Origin: Escherichia coli | GTDB taxonomy: Bacteria; Pseudomonadota; Gammaproteobacteria; Enterobacterales; Enterobacteriaceae | Assembly: GCF_001677475.2 (NCBI RefSeq) | Contig: NZ_CP015229.1 | DNA: 64,000 bases | Direction: 5' to 3' (one strand) | Shown here: positions 40,771-54,685 of the stretch, piece after piece | Numbering within the stretch: position 1 is the stretch's first letter | Layout of the letters: each line of letters starts with the position of its first letter | The notes under the pieces: generated by a model | Database searches by the model: none | Told to the model about the DNA's origin: nothing | The model's input: only the letters and a program-made list of their open reading frames with translations | Position numbers and translations under genes: made by a program

Positions 40771-42309
40771 TCACCCAACACCTTTCGCTGTAAACGGCGG
40801 TTTCGCAAACCAAACCAATACCGTAAGTAAGATAAAAGCAATAGCCGCCATACGGAAAATCTCATTTGCAGAAATTGAAAGTGACTGCTGAGTTATTTCA
40901 TTATTAATTTCATTAAGAACCCCTGAAAGCGAACCATAGTATTTATCCATAATTTGTGACGATGAATTAAACACGGGGTTAAATTGATCGATTGTTGCTG
41001 TCAACTGACTATGGTGTAATGATTCTCGGCGTCCCCACAGCGTCATTGTCAACGACGTACCAACGGATCCTGACAAGGTACGAAAAAAATTACTCATACT
41101 CGAGGCATTGGCAAATTTATTATCTGGCAAACCTGAAAACGAAATCGTTGTTAAGGGTAAAAAGAAACAGGCGACGGCGAATCCCTGAAAAAACTGTGGC
41201 AAAATGATGCCTGTAAAATCAATCGTTGGCATAAATGTCACAGAACGCCAGTAATAGCAAACCGCATACATTAAAAAACTAAATGTCACCAACAACCGCA
41301 TATCAATTTTGTTGCCATAACGTCCTATCAAAGGTGATATTAATAGCGGCATGATGCCGATGGGCGCATAGGCAAGTCCGGCCCATATCGCATTATACCC
41401 CATCGTTTCCTGGAGTAACTGCGGCATAAGGACTATCGCCCCAGAGTAAAATAAATACGCGCATGTGATACTCACAATACCAATGGTGAAATTACGGGAC
41501 TTAAACAAACTGAGATCAAGAATCGGATTCTCTGAGGTCGACTCCCAAATGACTAAAGAAATCAGAGAAATAACTGACACTACTGTTAGTATTATTATTG
41601 TACTCGAGTTGAACCAATCCAGATCGCGCCCTTTATCAAGCATTATCTGCAAGCCACCAACACCGAGCACTAACAGGGTCAGTCCTGGTAGATTCATTTT
41701 GACCGGTGAAGTCTCAGTTTCTCTTCCTTTAAGTAAGGTTAAGCATAATGTCAGAACGATAATCCCCATAGGGACATTGATTAAAAATATCCAACCCCAG
41801 CTAAAGTTGTCACAAATATAGCCGCCCAATATCGGCCCACATATCGGAGCGATAATTACGGTCATTGACCATAATGCCAAAGCAAATGTTCTTTTTTCTG
41901 GCGGATAATTCCTTAATAATAAACTCTGTGACAGTGGAATTAACGGCCCCGCCATTAACCCCTGAACGACTCTAAAAAATATCAACACATCAAGATTGGT
42001 CGATAGGCTACACATTAATGAAGACAGCGAAAAAAAGGTTACTGAAAGTAAAAATAATCTTAATTCGCCTATTCTTTGTGCCAGCCTGCCGGTAACAGGG
42101 ATCGCAATGGCATTTGCTACGCCAAACGAGGTGATAACCCAGGTGCCTTCGTCTGTTGATGCTCCCAGAAAGCCAGATATTGTCGGTATTGCGACGTTAG
42201 AAATAGTGGAATCCAACATTTGCATAAACGTCGCTAATGACAATGCAATAGTGACGCACCATAACGTCCCACCGGTTAATGGTGCCGGAGTTGATTTAGT
42301 GATTGCCAT
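40771..42309 (-). CDS. emrY: MFS multidrug efflux pump (EmrB paralogue)
   Basis: 512-aa 14-TM ORF; start overlaps emrK stop. Confidence 0.9.
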   Translation of the reverse strand: MAITKSTPAPLTGGTLWCVTIALSLATFMQMLDSTISNVAIPTISGFLGASTDEGTWVITSFGVANAIAIPVTGRLAQRIGELRLFLLSVTFFSLSSLMCSLSTNLDVLIFFRVVQGLMAGPLIPLSQSLLLRNYPPEKRTFALALWSMTVIIAPICGPILGGYICDNFSWGWIFLINVPMGIIVLTLCLTLLKGRETETSPVKMNLPGLTLLVLGVGGLQIMLDKGRDLDWFNSSTIIILTVVSVISLISLVIWESTSENPILDLSLFKSRNFTIGIVSITCAYLFYSGAIVLMPQLLQETMGYNAIWAGLAYAPIGIMPLLISPLIGRYGNKIDMRLLVTFSFLMYAVCYYWRSVTFMPTIDFTGIILPQFFQGFAVACFFLPLTTISFSGLPDNKFANASSMSNFFRTLSGSVGTSLTMTLWGRRESLHHSQLTATIDQFNPVFNSSSQIMDKYYGSLSGVLNEINNEITQQSLSISANEIFRMAAIAFILLTVLVWFAKPPFTAKGVG

Positions 42310-43472
42310 TAAAGTTGTCCATTATGCGAAATAATGTTGCTAATTTCTTTTTCTATCGGACTGGTATCGATAACTAAAGCCTTACTGGTATAAGCCGGCA
42401 TGGACGTCACGGTTGAAGCCAGATCAGGCATCTCAGCAATGTCTTCGTCCTTCGTATCAATAGTTGCAGTCATCGATAAACCAATGCGCAAGGGGTGTTC
42501 CATGAGTTCTTTTGGATCAAGAGAAACTTCAACCGGTACACGCTGAACGATTTTGATCCAGTTCCCTGTCGCATTTTGTGCAGGTAATAAGGAGAACGCA
42601 TTGCCGGTTCCCATATTGATCCCTGTCACCCGGCCATGAAACACAACATTCTCACCATAAAGATCGCTGATAATATTGACCGATTGACCAATCCGTACAT
42701 CCGTGAGTTGTGTTTCTTTAAAGTTGGCATTAACCCACATTTGACGTGCCGGTACGACAGCCATTAACGATTGTCCGGGACTCACTGTTTCGCCGACCTG
42801 AACACTTCGCTGGGCAATATAGCCGGTAACCGGACTCTTAATATCCGTACGTTTAAGCGCCAACCAGGCTTCTTTGGTTGCATCCGCAGCTTCAACGACT
42901 TGTGGCTGACGGTTTAATGGTGTGTTCATTACTAAAGCTTTATTCGCTTTATAAGCCTGGATAGCGGCATTCAATGCCGCTTTGCTACTTATTAACGTAT
43001 CTTTGGTATGCTCCAGCGTTTCTTTTGAAATAACCCCCTGCTTCGCTAACGGCACTCGACGGTTATAATCTTCTAAAGATTGTTGATACTGAATACGTGC
43101 TGAAGCGACTTCGGCACTGTATTGTTTATCCTGTAAGTATAGTTTATTCGTTTGCCGAACAATATTTGCCAGATTATTTTTAGCTTTATTGAGTGCGATA
43201 GTGGCATCAGTTTTATCCAGTGAAACTAAAATGTCACCTTGTCGAACGTAGTTCGTATCTTTATGATTAACTACAGTGACACTACCTGAGACTTGTGCAG
43301 AAATTGGATCTGCATTCCCCGTGACATAGGCGTCATCTGTACTAATCATGTCTTCTAATTCCATTGACCAATAGGCATAGGCACCTGAAAACGCAATAAA
43401 TAAAACTACCGCCAATAAAGAAAAGTATTTTCTTCTGTTAGAATGTTTTTTATTTGAATTAATCTGTTCCAC
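42309..43472 (-). CDS. emrK: membrane fusion protein of EmrKY efflux system
   Basis: 387-aa ORF with N-terminal TM anchor and coiled-coil / HlyD-like region. Confidence 0.9.
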   Translation of the reverse strand: MEQINSNKKHSNRRKYFSLLAVVLFIAFSGAYAYWSMELEDMISTDDAYVTGNADPISAQVSGSVTVVNHKDTNYVRQGDILVSLDKTDATIALNKAKNNLANIVRQTNKLYLQDKQYSAEVASARIQYQQSLEDYNRRVPLAKQGVISKETLEHTKDTLISSKAALNAAIQAYKANKALVMNTPLNRQPQVVEAADATKEAWLALKRTDIKSPVTGYIAQRSVQVGETVSPGQSLMAVVPARQMWVNANFKETQLTDVRIGQSVNIISDLYGENVVFHGRVTGINMGTGNAFSLLPAQNATGNWIKIVQRVPVEVSLDPKELMEHPLRIGLSMTATIDTKDEDIAEMPDLASTVTSMPAYTSKALVIDTSPIEKEISNIISHNGQL

Positions 43473-43645
43473 TATTATCTCTCATTTCGCATAGATGAAA
43501 TTTATGAATTGAATGAAAAGAGTATTCATTCTTCATATCAAACACAGTGCATGTGTTGCACATTATCCCAGGAACGTTGGAGGCCTAATTTAAATGAGGT
43601 GCAAAAAAAACAACAGAGGACTAAACCGTGGCTTTTGCAATACAA

Positions 43646-43663
43646 TTCTTACGCCTGTAGGAT
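43646..43663. promoter_or_regulatory. EvgA box-like inverted repeat in emrK-evgA divergent region
   Basis: TTCTTACG-CC-TGTAGGAT resembles the EvgA consensus TTCYTACA-N2-TGTARGAA. Confidence 0.55.
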
Positions 43664-43887
43664 TAGTGAGAAGACTTATAGTGCTAATGTGAAACTATAA
43701 ATCATCGGTACAATCCCTGATTTTATTGTTGACATTTCATATATGCCGACTATTTATATGGTATACTTGTCGAATTATCTTAAAGGAAGCTCAAATTTTC
43801 TTATTTTTATTGAGAAAATGAGATGATGCCTTATGTCTGTATTACTACAGGGAGAAGGGAGATGCTTCATTGCAAAGGGAATAATCT

Positions 43888-44502
43888 ATGAACGCAATAA
43901 TTATTGATGACCATCCTCTTGCTATCGCAGCAATTCGTAATTTATTGATCAAAAACGATATTGAAATCTTAGCAGAGTTGACTGAAGGCGGAAGTGCCGT
44001 TCAGCGGGTGGAAACACTTAAGCCTGATATCGTCATCATTGATGTCGATATCCCCGGAGTTAACGGTATCCAGGTGTTAGAAACGCTGAGGAAGCGCCAA
44101 TATAGCGGAATTATTATTATCGTCTCCGCTAAAAATGACCATTTTTACGGGAAACATTGTGCTGATGCTGGCGCTAATGGATTCGTGAGTAAAAAAGAAG
44201 GCATGAACAATATCATTGCGGCTATTGAAGCTGCAAAAAATGGCTACTGCTATTTCCCCTTCTCTCTCAACCGGTTTGTTGGAAGTTTAACGTCCGACCA
44301 GCAAAAACTCGACTCCTTATCGAAACAAGAAATTAGTGTCATGCGGTATATTCTTGATGGCAAGGATAATAATGACATTGCTGAAAAAATGTTCATCAGC
44401 AACAAAACTGTCAGCACGTATAAAAGTCGCCTGATGGAAAAATTAGAATGTAAATCACTGATGGATCTTTACACATTCGCGCAACGTAACAAAATCGGCT
44501 AA
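43888..44502 (+). CDS. evgA: NarL/FixJ-family response regulator
   Basis: 204-aa ORF MNAIIIDDHPLAIAAIRNLLIKNDIEIL... with receiver domain and C-terminal LuxR HTH. Confidence 0.94.
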   Translation: MNAIIIDDHPLAIAAIRNLLIKNDIEILAELTEGGSAVQRVETLKPDIVIIDVDIPGVNGIQVLETLRKRQYSGIIIIVSAKNDHFYGKHCADAGANGFVSKKEGMNNIIAAIEAAKNGYCYFPFSLNRFVGSLTSDQQKLDSLSKQEISVMRYILDGKDNNDIAEKMFISNKTVSTYKSRLMEKLECKSLMDLYTFAQRNKIG

Positions 44503-44506
44503 TCAC

Positions 44507-47500
44507 ATGAAGTTTTTACCCTATTTTTTTCTTCTCTGTTGTGGTCTTTGGTCGACCATAAGTTTCGCAGACGAAGATTACATCGAATATCGTGGCATCA
44601 GTAGTAACAACCGTGTCACACTTGATCCACTACGTCTGAGCAACAAGGAATTACGTTGGTTAGCGAGCAAAAAAAATCTTGTGATTGCAGTACACAAGTC
44701 CCAAACGGCTACGTTGTTGCATACCGATTCGCAGCAACGGGTTCGTGGTATTAATGCTGATTATTTAAATCTTTTAAAAAGAGCGTTAAATATCAAATTA
44801 ACACTCCGGGAATACGCCGATCATCAAAAAGCAATGGACGCGCTGGAAGAAGGTGAAGTCGATATAGTGTTATCACATTTAGTTACTTCGCCGCCTCTTA
44901 ATGATGACATTGCTGCAACCAAACCACTGATAATTACCTTTCCGGCGCTGGTCACCACCCTTCACGATTCAATGCGACCGCTTACCTCATCAAAACCAGT
45001 AAATATTGCTCGAGTAGCAAACTATCCCCCTGACGAGGTAATTTATCAATCATTTCCAAAAGCAACAATTATCTCTTTTACAAATTTATATCAGGCATTA
45101 GCATCCGTCTCAGCCGGACAGAATGATTACTTTATTGGTAGTAACATCATTACCAGCAGTATGATTTCCCGCTATTTCACTCACTCCTTAAATGTAGTGA
45201 AATATTATAACTCACCGCGTCAATATAATTTTTTCTTGACCAGAAAAGATTCAATCATTCTTAATGAAGTACTCAATCGATTTGTTGATGCTTTAACAAA
45301 TGAAGTTCGCTATGAAGTATCACAAAATTGGCTTGATACAGGAAACCTGGCCTTTCTGAACAAGCCATTAGAACTCACTGAACATGAAAAACAGTGGATT
45401 AAGCAGCATCCCGATTTAAAGGTGCTGGAAAATCCTTACTCGCCCCCCTATTCTATGACGGATGAAAATGGCTCGGTTCGGGGCGTTATGGGGGATATTC
45501 TTAATATTATTACCTTGCAAACAGGTTTAAATTTTTCTCCGATCACCGTTTCACACAATATCCATGCTGGAACACAGCTGAATCCCGGCGGATGGGATAT
45601 ATTACCCGGTGCTATTTATAGTGAAGATAGAGAAAATAATGTTTTATTTGCTGAAGCCTTCATAACAACGCCTTACGTTTTTGTCATGCAAAAAGCGCCT
45701 GACAGTGAACAAACATTAAAAAAAGGAATGAAAGTTGCCATTCCATATTATTATGAGCTGCATTCGCAATTAAAAGAGATGTATCCGGAGGTAGAGTGGA
45801 TAAAAGTCGATAACGCCAGCGCTGCATTTCACAAGGTCAAGGAAGGTGAACTTGATGCTCTGGTCGCGACACAGTTAAATTCGCGTTACATGATCGACCA
45901 TTACTATCCTAATGAACTGTATCATTTTCTTATTCCCGGCGTTCCGAATGCATCGCTTTCGTTCGCTTTTCCTCGCGGAGAACCGGAACTTAAGGATATT
46001 ATTAATAAAGCACTGAATGCAATCCCCCCAAGCGAAGTTCTGCGCCTGACGGAAAAATGGATTAAAATGCCCAATGTGACCATTGACACATGGGACCTCT
46101 ATAGCGAGCAATTTTATATTGTTACGACATTATCCGTTTTATTAGTTGGCAGTAGCCTTTTATGGGGATTCTACCTGTTACGCTCAGTTCGTCGTCGTAA
46201 AGTCATTCAGGGTGATTTAGAAAACCAAATATCATTCCGGAAAGCGCTCTCGGATTCCTTACCGAATCCAACTTATGTTGTAAACTGGCAAGGTAATGTC
46301 ATTAGTCATAATAGTGCTTTTGAACATTATTTCACTGCGGATTACTACAAAAATGCAATGTTACCATTAGAAAACAGTGACTCACCCTTTAAAGATGTTT
46401 TTTCTAATGCGCATGAAGTCACAGCAGAAACGAAAGAAAATCGAACAATATACACACAGGTATTTGAAATTGATAATGGCATCGAGAAAAGATGCATTAA
46501 TCACTGGCATACATTATGCAATCTGCCAGCCAGCGATCATGCTGTTTATATTTGTGGTTGGCAAGATATTACCGAGACGCGTGATTTAATTCATGCACTC
46601 GAAGTAGAGAGAAATAAAGCGATCAATGCAACTGTCGCAAAAAGTCAGTTTCTGGCAACAATGAGTCACGAAATAAGAACACCAATAAGCTCCATTATGG
46701 GCTTCCTGGAACTTCTGTCGGGTTCTGGTCTTAGCAAGGAACAACGGGTGGAGGCGATTTCACTTGCCTACGCCACCGGACAATCACTCCTCGGCTTAAT
46801 TGGTGAAATCCTTGATGTCGACAAAATTGAATCGGGTAACTATCAACTTCAACCACAATGGGTCGATATCCCTACTTTAGTCCAGAACACTTGTCACTCT
46901 TTCGGTGCGATTGCTGCAAGCAAATCGATCGCATTAAGTTGCAGCAGTACATTTCCTGAACATTACCTGGTTAAGATCGACCCTCAGGCGTTTAAGCAGG
47001 TCTTATCTAATTTACTGAGTAATGCTCTCAAATTTACCACCGAGGGGGCAGTAAAAATTACGACCTCCCTGGTTCATATGGATGACAACCACGCTGTTAT
47101 CAAAATGACGATTATGGATTCTGGAAGTGGATTATCACAGGAAGAACAACAACAACTGTTTAAACGCTATAGCCAAACAAGTGCAGGTCGTCAGCAAACA
47201 GGTTCTGGTTTAGGCTTAATGATCTGCAAAGAATTAATTAAAAACATGCAGGGCGATTTGTCATTAGAAAGTCATCCAGGCATAGGAACGACATTTACGA
47301 TCACTATCCCGGTAGAAATTACCCAACAAGTGGCAACTGTCGAGGCAAAAGCAGAACACCCCATCACACTACCTGAAAAGTTGAGCATATTAATCGCGGA
47401 TGATCATCCGACCAACAGGCTATTACTCAAACGCCAGCTAAACCTATTAGGATATGATGTTGATGAAGCCACTGATGGTGTGCAAGCGCTACACAAAGTC

Positions 47501-48100
47501 AGTATGCAACATTATGATCTGCTTATTACTGACGTTAATATGCCGAATATGGATGGTTTTGAGTTGACTCGCAAACTCCGTGAGCACAATTCTTCCTTAC
47601 CCATCTGGGGGCTTACAGCCAACGCACAGGCTAACGAACGTGAAAAAGGGTTAAATTGCGGCATGAACTTATGTTTGTTCAAACCGTTGACCCTGGATGT
47701 ACTGAAAACACATTTAAGTCAGTTACACCAGGTTGCGCATATTGCACCTCAGTATCGCCACCTTGATATCGAAGCCCTGAAAAATAATACGGCGAACGAT
47801 CTACAACTGATGCAGGAGATTCTCATGACTTTCCAGCATGAAACGCATAAAGATCTACCCGCTGCGTTTCATGCACTAGAAGCTGGCGATAACAGAACTT
47901 TCCATCAGTGCATTCATCGCATTCATGGTGCGGCTAACATCCTGAATTTGCAAAAGTTGATTAATATTAGCCATCAGTTAGAAATAACACCTGTTTCAGA
48001 TGACAGTAAGCCTGAAATTCTTCAGTTGCTGAACTCTGTAAAAGAACACATTGCAGAGCTGGACCAGGAGATTGCTGTTTTCTGTCAACAAAATGACTAA
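44507..48100 (+). CDS. evgS: hybrid sensor histidine kinase (periplasmic sensor domains, HisKA/HATPase, receiver, HPt)
   Basis: 1197-aa ORF; H-box ATMSHEIRTPISSIMGF, receiver domain LSILIADDHPTNRLL, C-terminal HPt. Confidence 0.94.
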   Translation: MKFLPYFFLLCCGLWSTISFADEDYIEYRGISSNNRVTLDPLRLSNKELRWLASKKNLVIAVHKSQTATLLHTDSQQRVRGINADYLNLLKRALNIKLTLREYADHQKAMDALEEGEVDIVLSHLVTSPPLNDDIAATKPLIITFPALVTTLHDSMRPLTSSKPVNIARVANYPPDEVIYQSFPKATIISFTNLYQALASVSAGQNDYFIGSNIITSSMISRYFTHSLNVVKYYNSPRQYNFFLTRKDSIILNEVLNRFVDALTNEVRYEVSQNWLDTGNLAFLNKPLELTEHEKQWIKQHPDLKVLENPYSPPYSMTDENGSVRGVMGDILNIITLQTGLNFSPITVSHNIHAGTQLNPGGWDILPGAIYSEDRENNVLFAEAFITTPYVFVMQKAPDSEQTLKKGMKVAIPYYYELHSQLKEMYPEVEWIKVDNASAAFHKVKEGELDALVATQLNSRYMIDHYYPNELYHFLIPGVPNASLSFAFPRGEPELKDIINKALNAIPPSEVLRLTEKWIKMPNVTIDTWDLYSEQFYIVTTLSVLLVGSSLLWGFYLLRSVRRRKVIQGDLENQISFRKALSDSLPNPTYVVNWQGNVISHNSAFEHYFTADYYKNAMLPLENSDSPFKDVFSNAHEVTAETKENRTIYTQVFEIDNGIEKRCINHWHTLCNLPASDHAVYICGWQDITETRDLIHALEVERNKAINATVAKSQFLATMSHEIRTPISSIMGFLELLSGSGLSKEQRVEAISLAYATGQSLLGLIGEILDVDKIESGNYQLQPQWVDIPTLVQNTCHSFGAIAASKSIALSCSSTFPEHYLVKIDPQAFKQVLSNLLSNALKFTTEGAVKITTSLVHMDDNHAVIKMTIMDSGSGLSQEEQQQLFKRYSQTSAGRQQTGSGLGLMICKELIKNMQGDLSLESHPGIGTTFTITIPVEITQQVATVEAKAEHPITLPEKLSILIADDHPTNRLLLKRQLNLLGYDVDEATDGVQALHKVSMQHYDLLITDVNMPNMDGFELTRKLREHNSSLPIWGLTANAQANEREKGLNCGMNLCLFKPLTLDVLKTHLSQLHQVAHIAPQYRHLDIEALKNNTANDLQLMQEILMTFQHETHKDLPAAFHALEAGDNRTFHQCIHRIHGAANILNLQKLINISHQLEITPVSDDSKPEILQLLNSVKEHIAELDQEIAVFCQQND

Positions 48101-53638: not shown

Positions 53639-53656
53639 TTCTTACAACTGTAAGAA
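53639..53656. promoter_or_regulatory. EvgA box (perfect consensus) upstream of frc operon
   Basis: TTCTTACA-AC-TGTAAGAA: exact match to TTCYTACA-N2-TGTARGAA, about 250 bp upstream of the frc start. Confidence 0.65.
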
Positions 53657-54628: not shown

Positions 54629-54646
54629 TATCTTACAGTTGTAGTT
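54629..54646. promoter_or_regulatory. EvgA box-like site upstream of yfdX (distal)
   Basis: ATCTTACA-GT-TGTAGTTA: partial match to the EvgA consensus. Confidence 0.45.
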
Positions 54647-54667
54647 ATTATCGCAAGAAGTATTTTA

Positions 54668-54685
54668 GTCTTACAATTGTAGGAA
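54668..54685. promoter_or_regulatory. EvgA box-like site upstream of yfdX
   Basis: GTCTTACA-AT-TGTAGGAA: 15 of 16 match to the EvgA consensus. Confidence 0.6.

Follow-up and report, generated by a model that had tools for sequence, protein, structure and literature searches.

Between the divergent emrKY and evgAS operons of Escherichia coli lies a short spacer in which the acid-sensing response regulator EvgA is expected to bind, and this arrangement raises two questions: which bases form the EvgA site, and whether that site serves the emrKY operon, the regulator's own operon, or both. In the window, by which we mean the whole 64,000-nucleotide (64-kb) stretch of E. coli DNA analyzed here, positions 43473-43887 are exactly the 415-bp non-coding emrK/evgA spacer, with the two genes diverging on either side. 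To its left, on the minus strand, emrK (42309..43472) begins with a GTG codon at 43472 and encodes a 387-aa membrane-fusion subunit of the EmrKY pump with Pfam HlyD/CusB domains. To its right, on the plus strand, evgA (43888..44502) begins with an ATG at 43888 and encodes a 204-aa response regulator composed of a receiver and a LuxR/GerE-type helix-turn-helix domain (Response_reg and GerE in Pfam), and evgS (44507-48100) is the next gene after it. The identities of emrK and evgA were taken from annotated E. coli genomes that are 99.9% identical and from the K-12 annotation, and the genes are named emrK, evgL, evgA and evgS both in the matching E. coli chromosomes and in K-12. A match to the 701 bases around the spacer was obtained in 5398 of 5426 complete genomes, with 99.9% identity for many annotated E. 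coli chromosomes. Compared with K-12, the spacer of the window carries 9 differences in 415 positions, all of them outside the 18-mer discussed below, so the K-12 literature is directly applicable to the window. The spacer is itself polymorphic in E. coli (95-99% identity for most records) and has served as a host-source marker (PMC11267920). Two further observations concern the records: 20 spacer matches fall on records typed as plasmids, and emrK is frameshifted by annotation in the closest genome, XH990, the open reading frame being intact in the window.

Direct binding of EvgA to the emrK/evgA intergenic region, and direct activation of emrKY, are stated in secondary sources (PMC5093140, PMC8174306, PMC5573083, citing Kato 2000 and Tanabe 1998). 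Dependence of emrKY on EvgA has been reported repeatedly (PMC8174306, PMC6393483, PMC4283999), and in Shigella the induction of emrKY is abolished in an evgA mutant (PMC6393483). The presence of an EvgA box in this spacer is already known and is nothing new to the field. Given the domains of EvgA, together with the binding and activation described in these secondary sources, the box is taken here as the site of a dimer of phosphorylated EvgA (EvgA~P) acting on emrKY. Three entries for EvgA are found in the PDB (5F64, 8ZWN and 3F6C, the first two of the full-length protein); a literature search for papers on the structures 5F64 and 8ZWN gave unrelated matches only. Full-text searches with the motif name and with literal site sequences gave nothing useful.

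The EvgA motif was reportedly described by Masuda and Church in 2003 as an 18-bp inverted repeat of 5'-TTCPyTACA-3', and the site at 43646-43663 is presumably one of six published EvgA inverted repeats. Mutation of the repeat is said, in the same work of 2003, to have abolished EvgA-dependent induction at ydeP and b1500; no such mutation is known to have been reported for emrK. Binding is assigned to exactly these 18 bases on the logic of the motif and on the repeat attributed to Masuda and Church. The 18-mer, TTCTTACGCCTGTAGGAT on the plus strand, is an imperfect inverted repeat in an 8-2-8 arrangement, consisting of the halves TTCTTACG (43646-43653) and TGTAGGAT (43656-43663) around a CC centre, and its midpoint precedes the emrK start codon by 182.5 bp. 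In K-12 (NC_000913.3), the 18-mer occupies 2,483,513-2,483,530. Against the consensus TTCYTACANNTGTARGAA (TTCYTACA-NN-TGTARGAA), 14 of the 16 specified positions match, the mismatches being G8 and T18, and by eye the two halves share only 5 of 8 bases. With up to three mismatches allowed, the exact 18-mer is matched nowhere else in the 64 kb.

The consensus used for the pattern scans, the one attributed to Masuda and Church, was also recovered by a search that made no use of it. When up to three mismatches are allowed, TTCYTACANNTGTARGAA has four matches in the 64 kb, against 0.59 expected and a count that 0 of 100 shuffles reach, and each of the four precedes an EvgA-regulated operon: one in the emrK/evgA spacer, one at frc and two at yfdX. 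In the consensus-free search for the best shared 18-mer among five EvgA-target upstream regions, 43644-43661 was chosen in the emrK/evgA spacer, which is the same site as the box, and the total distance was 13 compared with a null minimum of 17 over 60 resamplings. A position matrix was also built in leave-one-out fashion, trained on the frc, yfdX, safA and ydeP sites alone; with it, the box reaches 18.8 bits and ranks fourth in the 64 kb after three training sites, whereas the next untrained site reaches 11.8 bits and the next best position within the spacer 4.1. On sequence grounds, then, the spacer offers no alternative place for an EvgA site. The original prediction of an EvgA box-like site at 43646-43663, between the divergent emrKY and evgAS operons, is thereby confirmed with a matrix that had left the site out, and its use of the site as an internal control of the motif scan was sound, the scan having recovered an EvgA box shared with other EvgA-activated promoters. 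Elsewhere in the spacer, a lone half-site-like TTACTACA (43842-43849, one mismatch to TTCYTACA) occurs within the evgA leader, shortly before the ribosome-binding site of evgL, and is probably there by chance.

The sister boxes place the emrK site in a family. Within the window, the frc (yfdW) box, TTCTTACAACTGTAAGAA (53639..53656), is a perfect palindrome located 252 bp ahead of frc/yfdW, and two boxes precede yfdX (54668-54685 with one mismatch and 54630-54647 with three), their centres 38 bp apart. In K-12, the pattern TTCYTACANNTGTARGAA is also found upstream of safA-ydeO (one mismatch) and ydeP (two mismatches). The inverted repeats upstream of yfdX and yfdWUVE are bound by EvgA (PMC3720670), and every direct EvgA target is said to carry an EvgA site (PMC4283999). 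The emrK box has in common with those of ydeP, safA-ydeO, frc/yfdWUVE and yfdX the 18-bp 8-2-8 inverted repeat and a -10-like hexamer 53-54 nt past the box. Read on the emrK strand, as ATCCTACAGGCGTAAGAA, it takes a form shared with safA (TGCCTACAGCTGTAAGAA) and ydeP (AGCCTACACCTGTAAGAA), namely xxCCTACAxxxGTAAGAA. It is weaker than the frc box (two mismatches vs none) and, unlike the other boxes of the regulon, is located in a divergent spacer beside the regulator's own operon, with the regulator gene adjacent. Likenesses extend beyond the boxes at other members of the regulon. The decamer CTCTCTGATT is found 22 nt after both the frc box and the proximal yfdX box, which suggests a duplicated promoter module, and the safA and ydeP promoter regions are visibly alike over about 40 nt past the box, as if duplicated.

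Could the match be fortuitous, or belong to another regulator of the NarL/FixJ family such as NarL? Members of this family recognize related TAC-containing repeats, TACGCCTGTAGGATTA resembles a NarL 7-2-7 site with two mismatches, and the half-sites are imperfect, agreeing at only those 5 of 8 positions. However, the motif is common specifically to promoters of the EvgA regulon, far above background; it is kept across lineages, where it changes toward the EvgA consensus; and nothing ties NarL or another member of the family to emrKY. Chance or a different family member is therefore a very improbable explanation. Judged from its sequence, the 18-mer at 43646-43663 is very probably the EvgA operator of the E. 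coli emrK/evgA spacer, bound by a dimer and activating emrKY.

Conservation within the species was assessed in eight E. coli spacers sampled down the identity ranking, in which variation affects 24 of 415 columns but spares all 18 columns of the box. The 34-mer around the box (43634-43667) is exact in 4890 of 5417 records; three of the non-exact records were sampled, and two of them have a C-to-A change at 43655, a central unspecified base, the third differing outside the box only. When one genome per species was scanned, two divergent emrK-evgA spacers orthologous to this one came up. The first, L004, is from a divergent genome labelled E. coli (spacer identity 79%), and its box TTCTTACACCTGTAGGAA has no mismatch and is a perfect palindrome. 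The second, L005, is from a genome labelled Yersinia vastinensis (spacer identity 65%), and its box TTCTTACACGTGTAGGCA has one mismatch. Changes in the orthologous boxes hit unspecified positions or go toward the consensus, and this pattern, read from the sequences, is as expected of a constrained operator. A stronger description of the box as the most conserved island of the spacer was dropped after a sliding-identity test: in raw identity against L005, the box comes 92nd among 398 sliding windows, and the evgA leader shows higher conservation. The L005 locus (NZ_CACVAF010000001.1, Yersinia vastinensis IP38594, 949-3115) is an Escherichia-like emrK-evgA pair on a 590-kb contig, with an EvgA that is 94% identical and with the EvgA box kept; its presence under a Yersinia label may reflect horizontal transfer or mislabelling.

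If the box is an emrKY operator, a promoter would be expected at a defined distance from it on the emrK side. The emrK, safA, ydeP, frc and yfdX promoters were anchored on their boxes and scanned for a shared -10-like hexamer. The best common register is 53-54 nt past the box, with a mean of 3.94 bits against 2.16 +/- 0.49 in the null of random rotations; this score is equalled by 4 of 1000 rotations, and the register is unchanged when emrK is left out. At emrK, the register points to a candidate -10 hexamer TAAATT on the minus strand (43587..43592), which starts 54 nt after the box, and the neighbouring register, 53-58 nt past the box, has TTAAAT in L004 and TAGAAT in L005. A leader length of 178 nt has been given for ydeP (PMC11210196), which places the ydeP start 66 nt past its box and the box centre at -74.5. 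Transferred to emrK, this layout predicts a start near 43580 and again a box centre near -74.5. The presumed -42..-36 region would then contain the minus-strand heptamer AGTCCTC (43616..43622, 24-30 nt after the box), whose counterparts at exactly 24-30 nt past the box are AGTCCTA at safA and AGTCTTA at ydeP; TCTTC is retained in L004 and L005.

A layout in which the box centre is at about -41.5 or -42.5 (class II) is usual for activators of the LuxR and TraR type. Applied to emrK, it would put the box centre at -41.5, overlapping the -35 region, with TTTAGT (43625-43620) as the -10 hexamer and a start near 43613. As a -10, the hexamer reaches 2.7 bits, and its counterpart in L004 is TTTAAT; no part of the upstream spacer is better conserved than the flank of the box on the emrK side, TTGTATTGCAAAA (94% vs L005). 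On the other hand, TTTAGT becomes CATTGT in L005, the register common to the five EvgA-target promoters is 53-54 nt past the box and not 21, and the length of the ydeP leader favours a distal position of the box. The class II layout was favoured at first and was downgraded because of the box-anchored -10 register test; it is now regarded as an unlikely arrangement, although one still given some weight, and the distal layout with a start near 43580 is preferred.

Published start-site data were searched for the emrK and ydeP promoters. No entry for the emrK or ydeP start sites was found in the start-site table of Ettwiller 2016, and the table of Kim 2012 (PMC3415461 supplement) holds nothing for ydeP, b1500, yfdX or yfdW and, at emrK, only an internal antisense start. 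The latter is a plus-strand start at about 43275 inside emrK, antisense to it and 613 nt upstream of the evgA ATG, which Kim et al. 2012 assigned to evgA (PMC3415461). Another candidate promoter, TTGATA-17-TTTCAT, the third in this region, was listed near the emrK start codon (PMC3946193). A simple promoter scan returned a single minus-strand candidate (43749-43720), whose transcription would run across the box and which was for that reason rejected as the EvgA-dependent promoter. Past the predicted start and ahead of the start codon, the emrK leader contains a terminator-like hairpin on the minus strand (43547-43561), GTGCAACACATGCAC followed by TGTGTTTGAT, one such element being found where shuffled sequences give an expectation of 0.1. 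E. coli retains it, with stem position 43555 varying among the eight sampled spacers; L005 does not. An Rfam scan of 43300-44000 found no RNA family.

The following mechanism can be proposed for emrKY. Proteins of the NarL, TraR and RcsB type bind dyad-symmetric sites as dimers. EvgA, once phosphorylated, would as a member of the NarL/FixJ family likewise bind as a dimer, one subunit on each 8-bp half-site, the TTCYTACA sequences being inverted and separated by a 2-bp gap. EvgA~P on the box would then activate a sigma-70 emrKY promoter on the minus strand, with the box centre near -74.5, the -10 hexamer TAAATT at 43592-43587 and a start near 43580, a box-to-promoter spacing like that at ydeP, safA-ydeO, frc and yfdX. 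Transcription of evgAS comes from a promoter of its own with a consensus -35 element (TTGACA), 110-120 bp away on the far side of the box. The analysis itself shows the sequence, its gene context, its membership of the motif, its conservation, the domains of EvgA and the annotated 5' ends of the evgA leader, and the secondary literature supplies the binding of EvgA to this spacer and the activation of emrKY. We infer the dimer binding, the emrK start with its spacing, and the weak role of the box in evgAS expression.

Better-described systems share parts of this arrangement. BvgAS of Bordetella has been described as the closest homologue of EvgAS (PMC5573083). BvgA, which acts at the fha and bvg promoters, is like EvgA in belonging to the same protein family and in having an unorthodox phosphorelay kinase as its partner. 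Promoters controlled by BvgA have an inverted-repeat primary site well upstream of the -35 element, a position that they share with the emrK box. Cooperative binding of additional dimers extends to the -35 region at BvgA promoters, whereas only one full site is detectable in the emrK/evgA spacer; a conserved half-site-like AGTCCTC is present in the presumed -42..-36 region of emrK. The tra box of TraR and the lux box of LuxR are 18-20 bp inverted repeats bound by GerE-type dimers and thus resemble the EvgA box as dyad-symmetric operators of about 18 bp for a GerE-domain dimer. They differ in position, being usually at -41.5 or -42.5 where the EvgA box is apparently near -74.5, and in the signal, TraR and LuxR being activated by an acyl-homoserine lactone ligand and EvgA by phosphorylation. 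The EvgA box works like other operators of LuxR/GerE-type dimers, though probably from a distal position and not from that of class II, which recalls the upstream primary sites of BvgA.

On the other side of the spacer, a core promoter for evgA can be outlined on the plus strand (43729..43774). It comprises a consensus -35 element TTGACA (43729-43734) and a -10 region with TATTTA/TATATG (43751-43760) and TATACT (43762-43767). The annotated 5' ends of evgA are at 43764 (-124) and 43774 (-114): the leader begins with TACTTGTCG at 43764 (PMC11052181 supplement), and 5' ends at -114 and -124 have been given (PMC11210196). Genomic SELEX with the RpoD holoenzyme listed the evgA promoter, TTGACA-19-TATATG, as constitutive (PMC3946193). 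Downstream of these starts, the nine-codon leader ORF evgL (43862..43891, plus strand, MLHCKGNNL; b4781 in K-12) ends with a stop codon that overlaps the evgA start (ATGA). It belongs to the evgA leader and not to the EvgA box, and has been found to be translationally coupled to evgA and repressed by CsrA (PMC11210196). The leader containing evgL is the most conserved part of the spacer. In L005, a deletion removes the segment that holds, in E. coli, the TATACT -10 element and both annotated evgA starts (43764 and 43774).

Does the same box also act on evgAS? The original prediction treated both the activation of emrKY and the autoregulation of EvgA as documented here. Activation of emrKY is well attested (PMC8174306, PMC5093140, PMC5573083), but autoregulation is disputed, with early work for it and two later papers against (PMC8174306, PMC6393483). 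A single box that activates both emrKY and evgAS and so gives positive autoregulation, as was assumed there, agrees with summaries of Tanabe 1998 and Kato 2000 according to which EvgA binding here regulates both operons (PMC5573083, PMC5093140). A near-palindromic box could also work in either direction, and in Klebsiella, Buttiauxella, Enterobacter and Hafnia half-conserved TTCCTAC..TGT sites are found upstream of evgA homologues. These sites, of the form TTCCTAC(A/G)nnTGT, have four mismatches, however, which is near noise level. Later reports describe evgAS as not autoregulated, citing Eguchi 2003, with constant levels of EvgS (PMC8174306), and evgA mRNA as unchanged while emrKY is induced via EvgA (PMC6393483). 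The evgA promoter has a consensus -35 element and was selected by RNA polymerase holoenzyme alone (PMC3946193), and the centre of the box is at -109.5 or -119.5 from the evgA 5' ends, so that about 110-120 bp separate it from that promoter. Nearest to the box on the evgA side, the -10-like hexamer GCTAAT is polymorphic, reading GCCAAC in K-12. Finally, evgAS is intact in E. coli NCTC10444 (L093, NZ_LR134092.1), where the sequence upstream of it amounts to just 179 bp and lacks the box. The match of this strain to the window covers 43709-43887 only, an IS1 and a fimbrial operon standing in place of everything to the left of 43709, including emrKY and the half of the spacer that holds the box. 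Taken together, these data suggest that the box serves mainly as an operator of emrKY; autoregulation through it is possible but doubtful, and the evgA promoter probably has little or no dependence on the box.

A more specific version of this reading can be put forward only tentatively, as something that we hold slightly less probable than its contrary. The EvgA box would be unidirectional and part of a fixed module, made of the box, AGTC(C/T)T(A/C) at 24-30 nt and a -10 hexamer at 53-54 nt, at emrK, safA and ydeP, the spacing from box to -10 being found at frc and yfdX as well. Expression of evgAS would be constitutive and not autoregulated, and G8 and T18, where E. coli departs from the palindrome, would reflect weakening of the site in one lineage, a sister Escherichia lineage having the perfect form.

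Recovery of a known operator at the right place means that the other EvgA-box calls of the motif scan deserve some trust. For the emrK promoter, the layout with the box centre near -74.5 is a testable prediction, and NCTC10444 provides a natural test of box-independent evgAS expression. The argument from sequence that the box serves emrKY rather than evgAS bears directly on the disagreement in the literature over the autoregulation of EvgAS.
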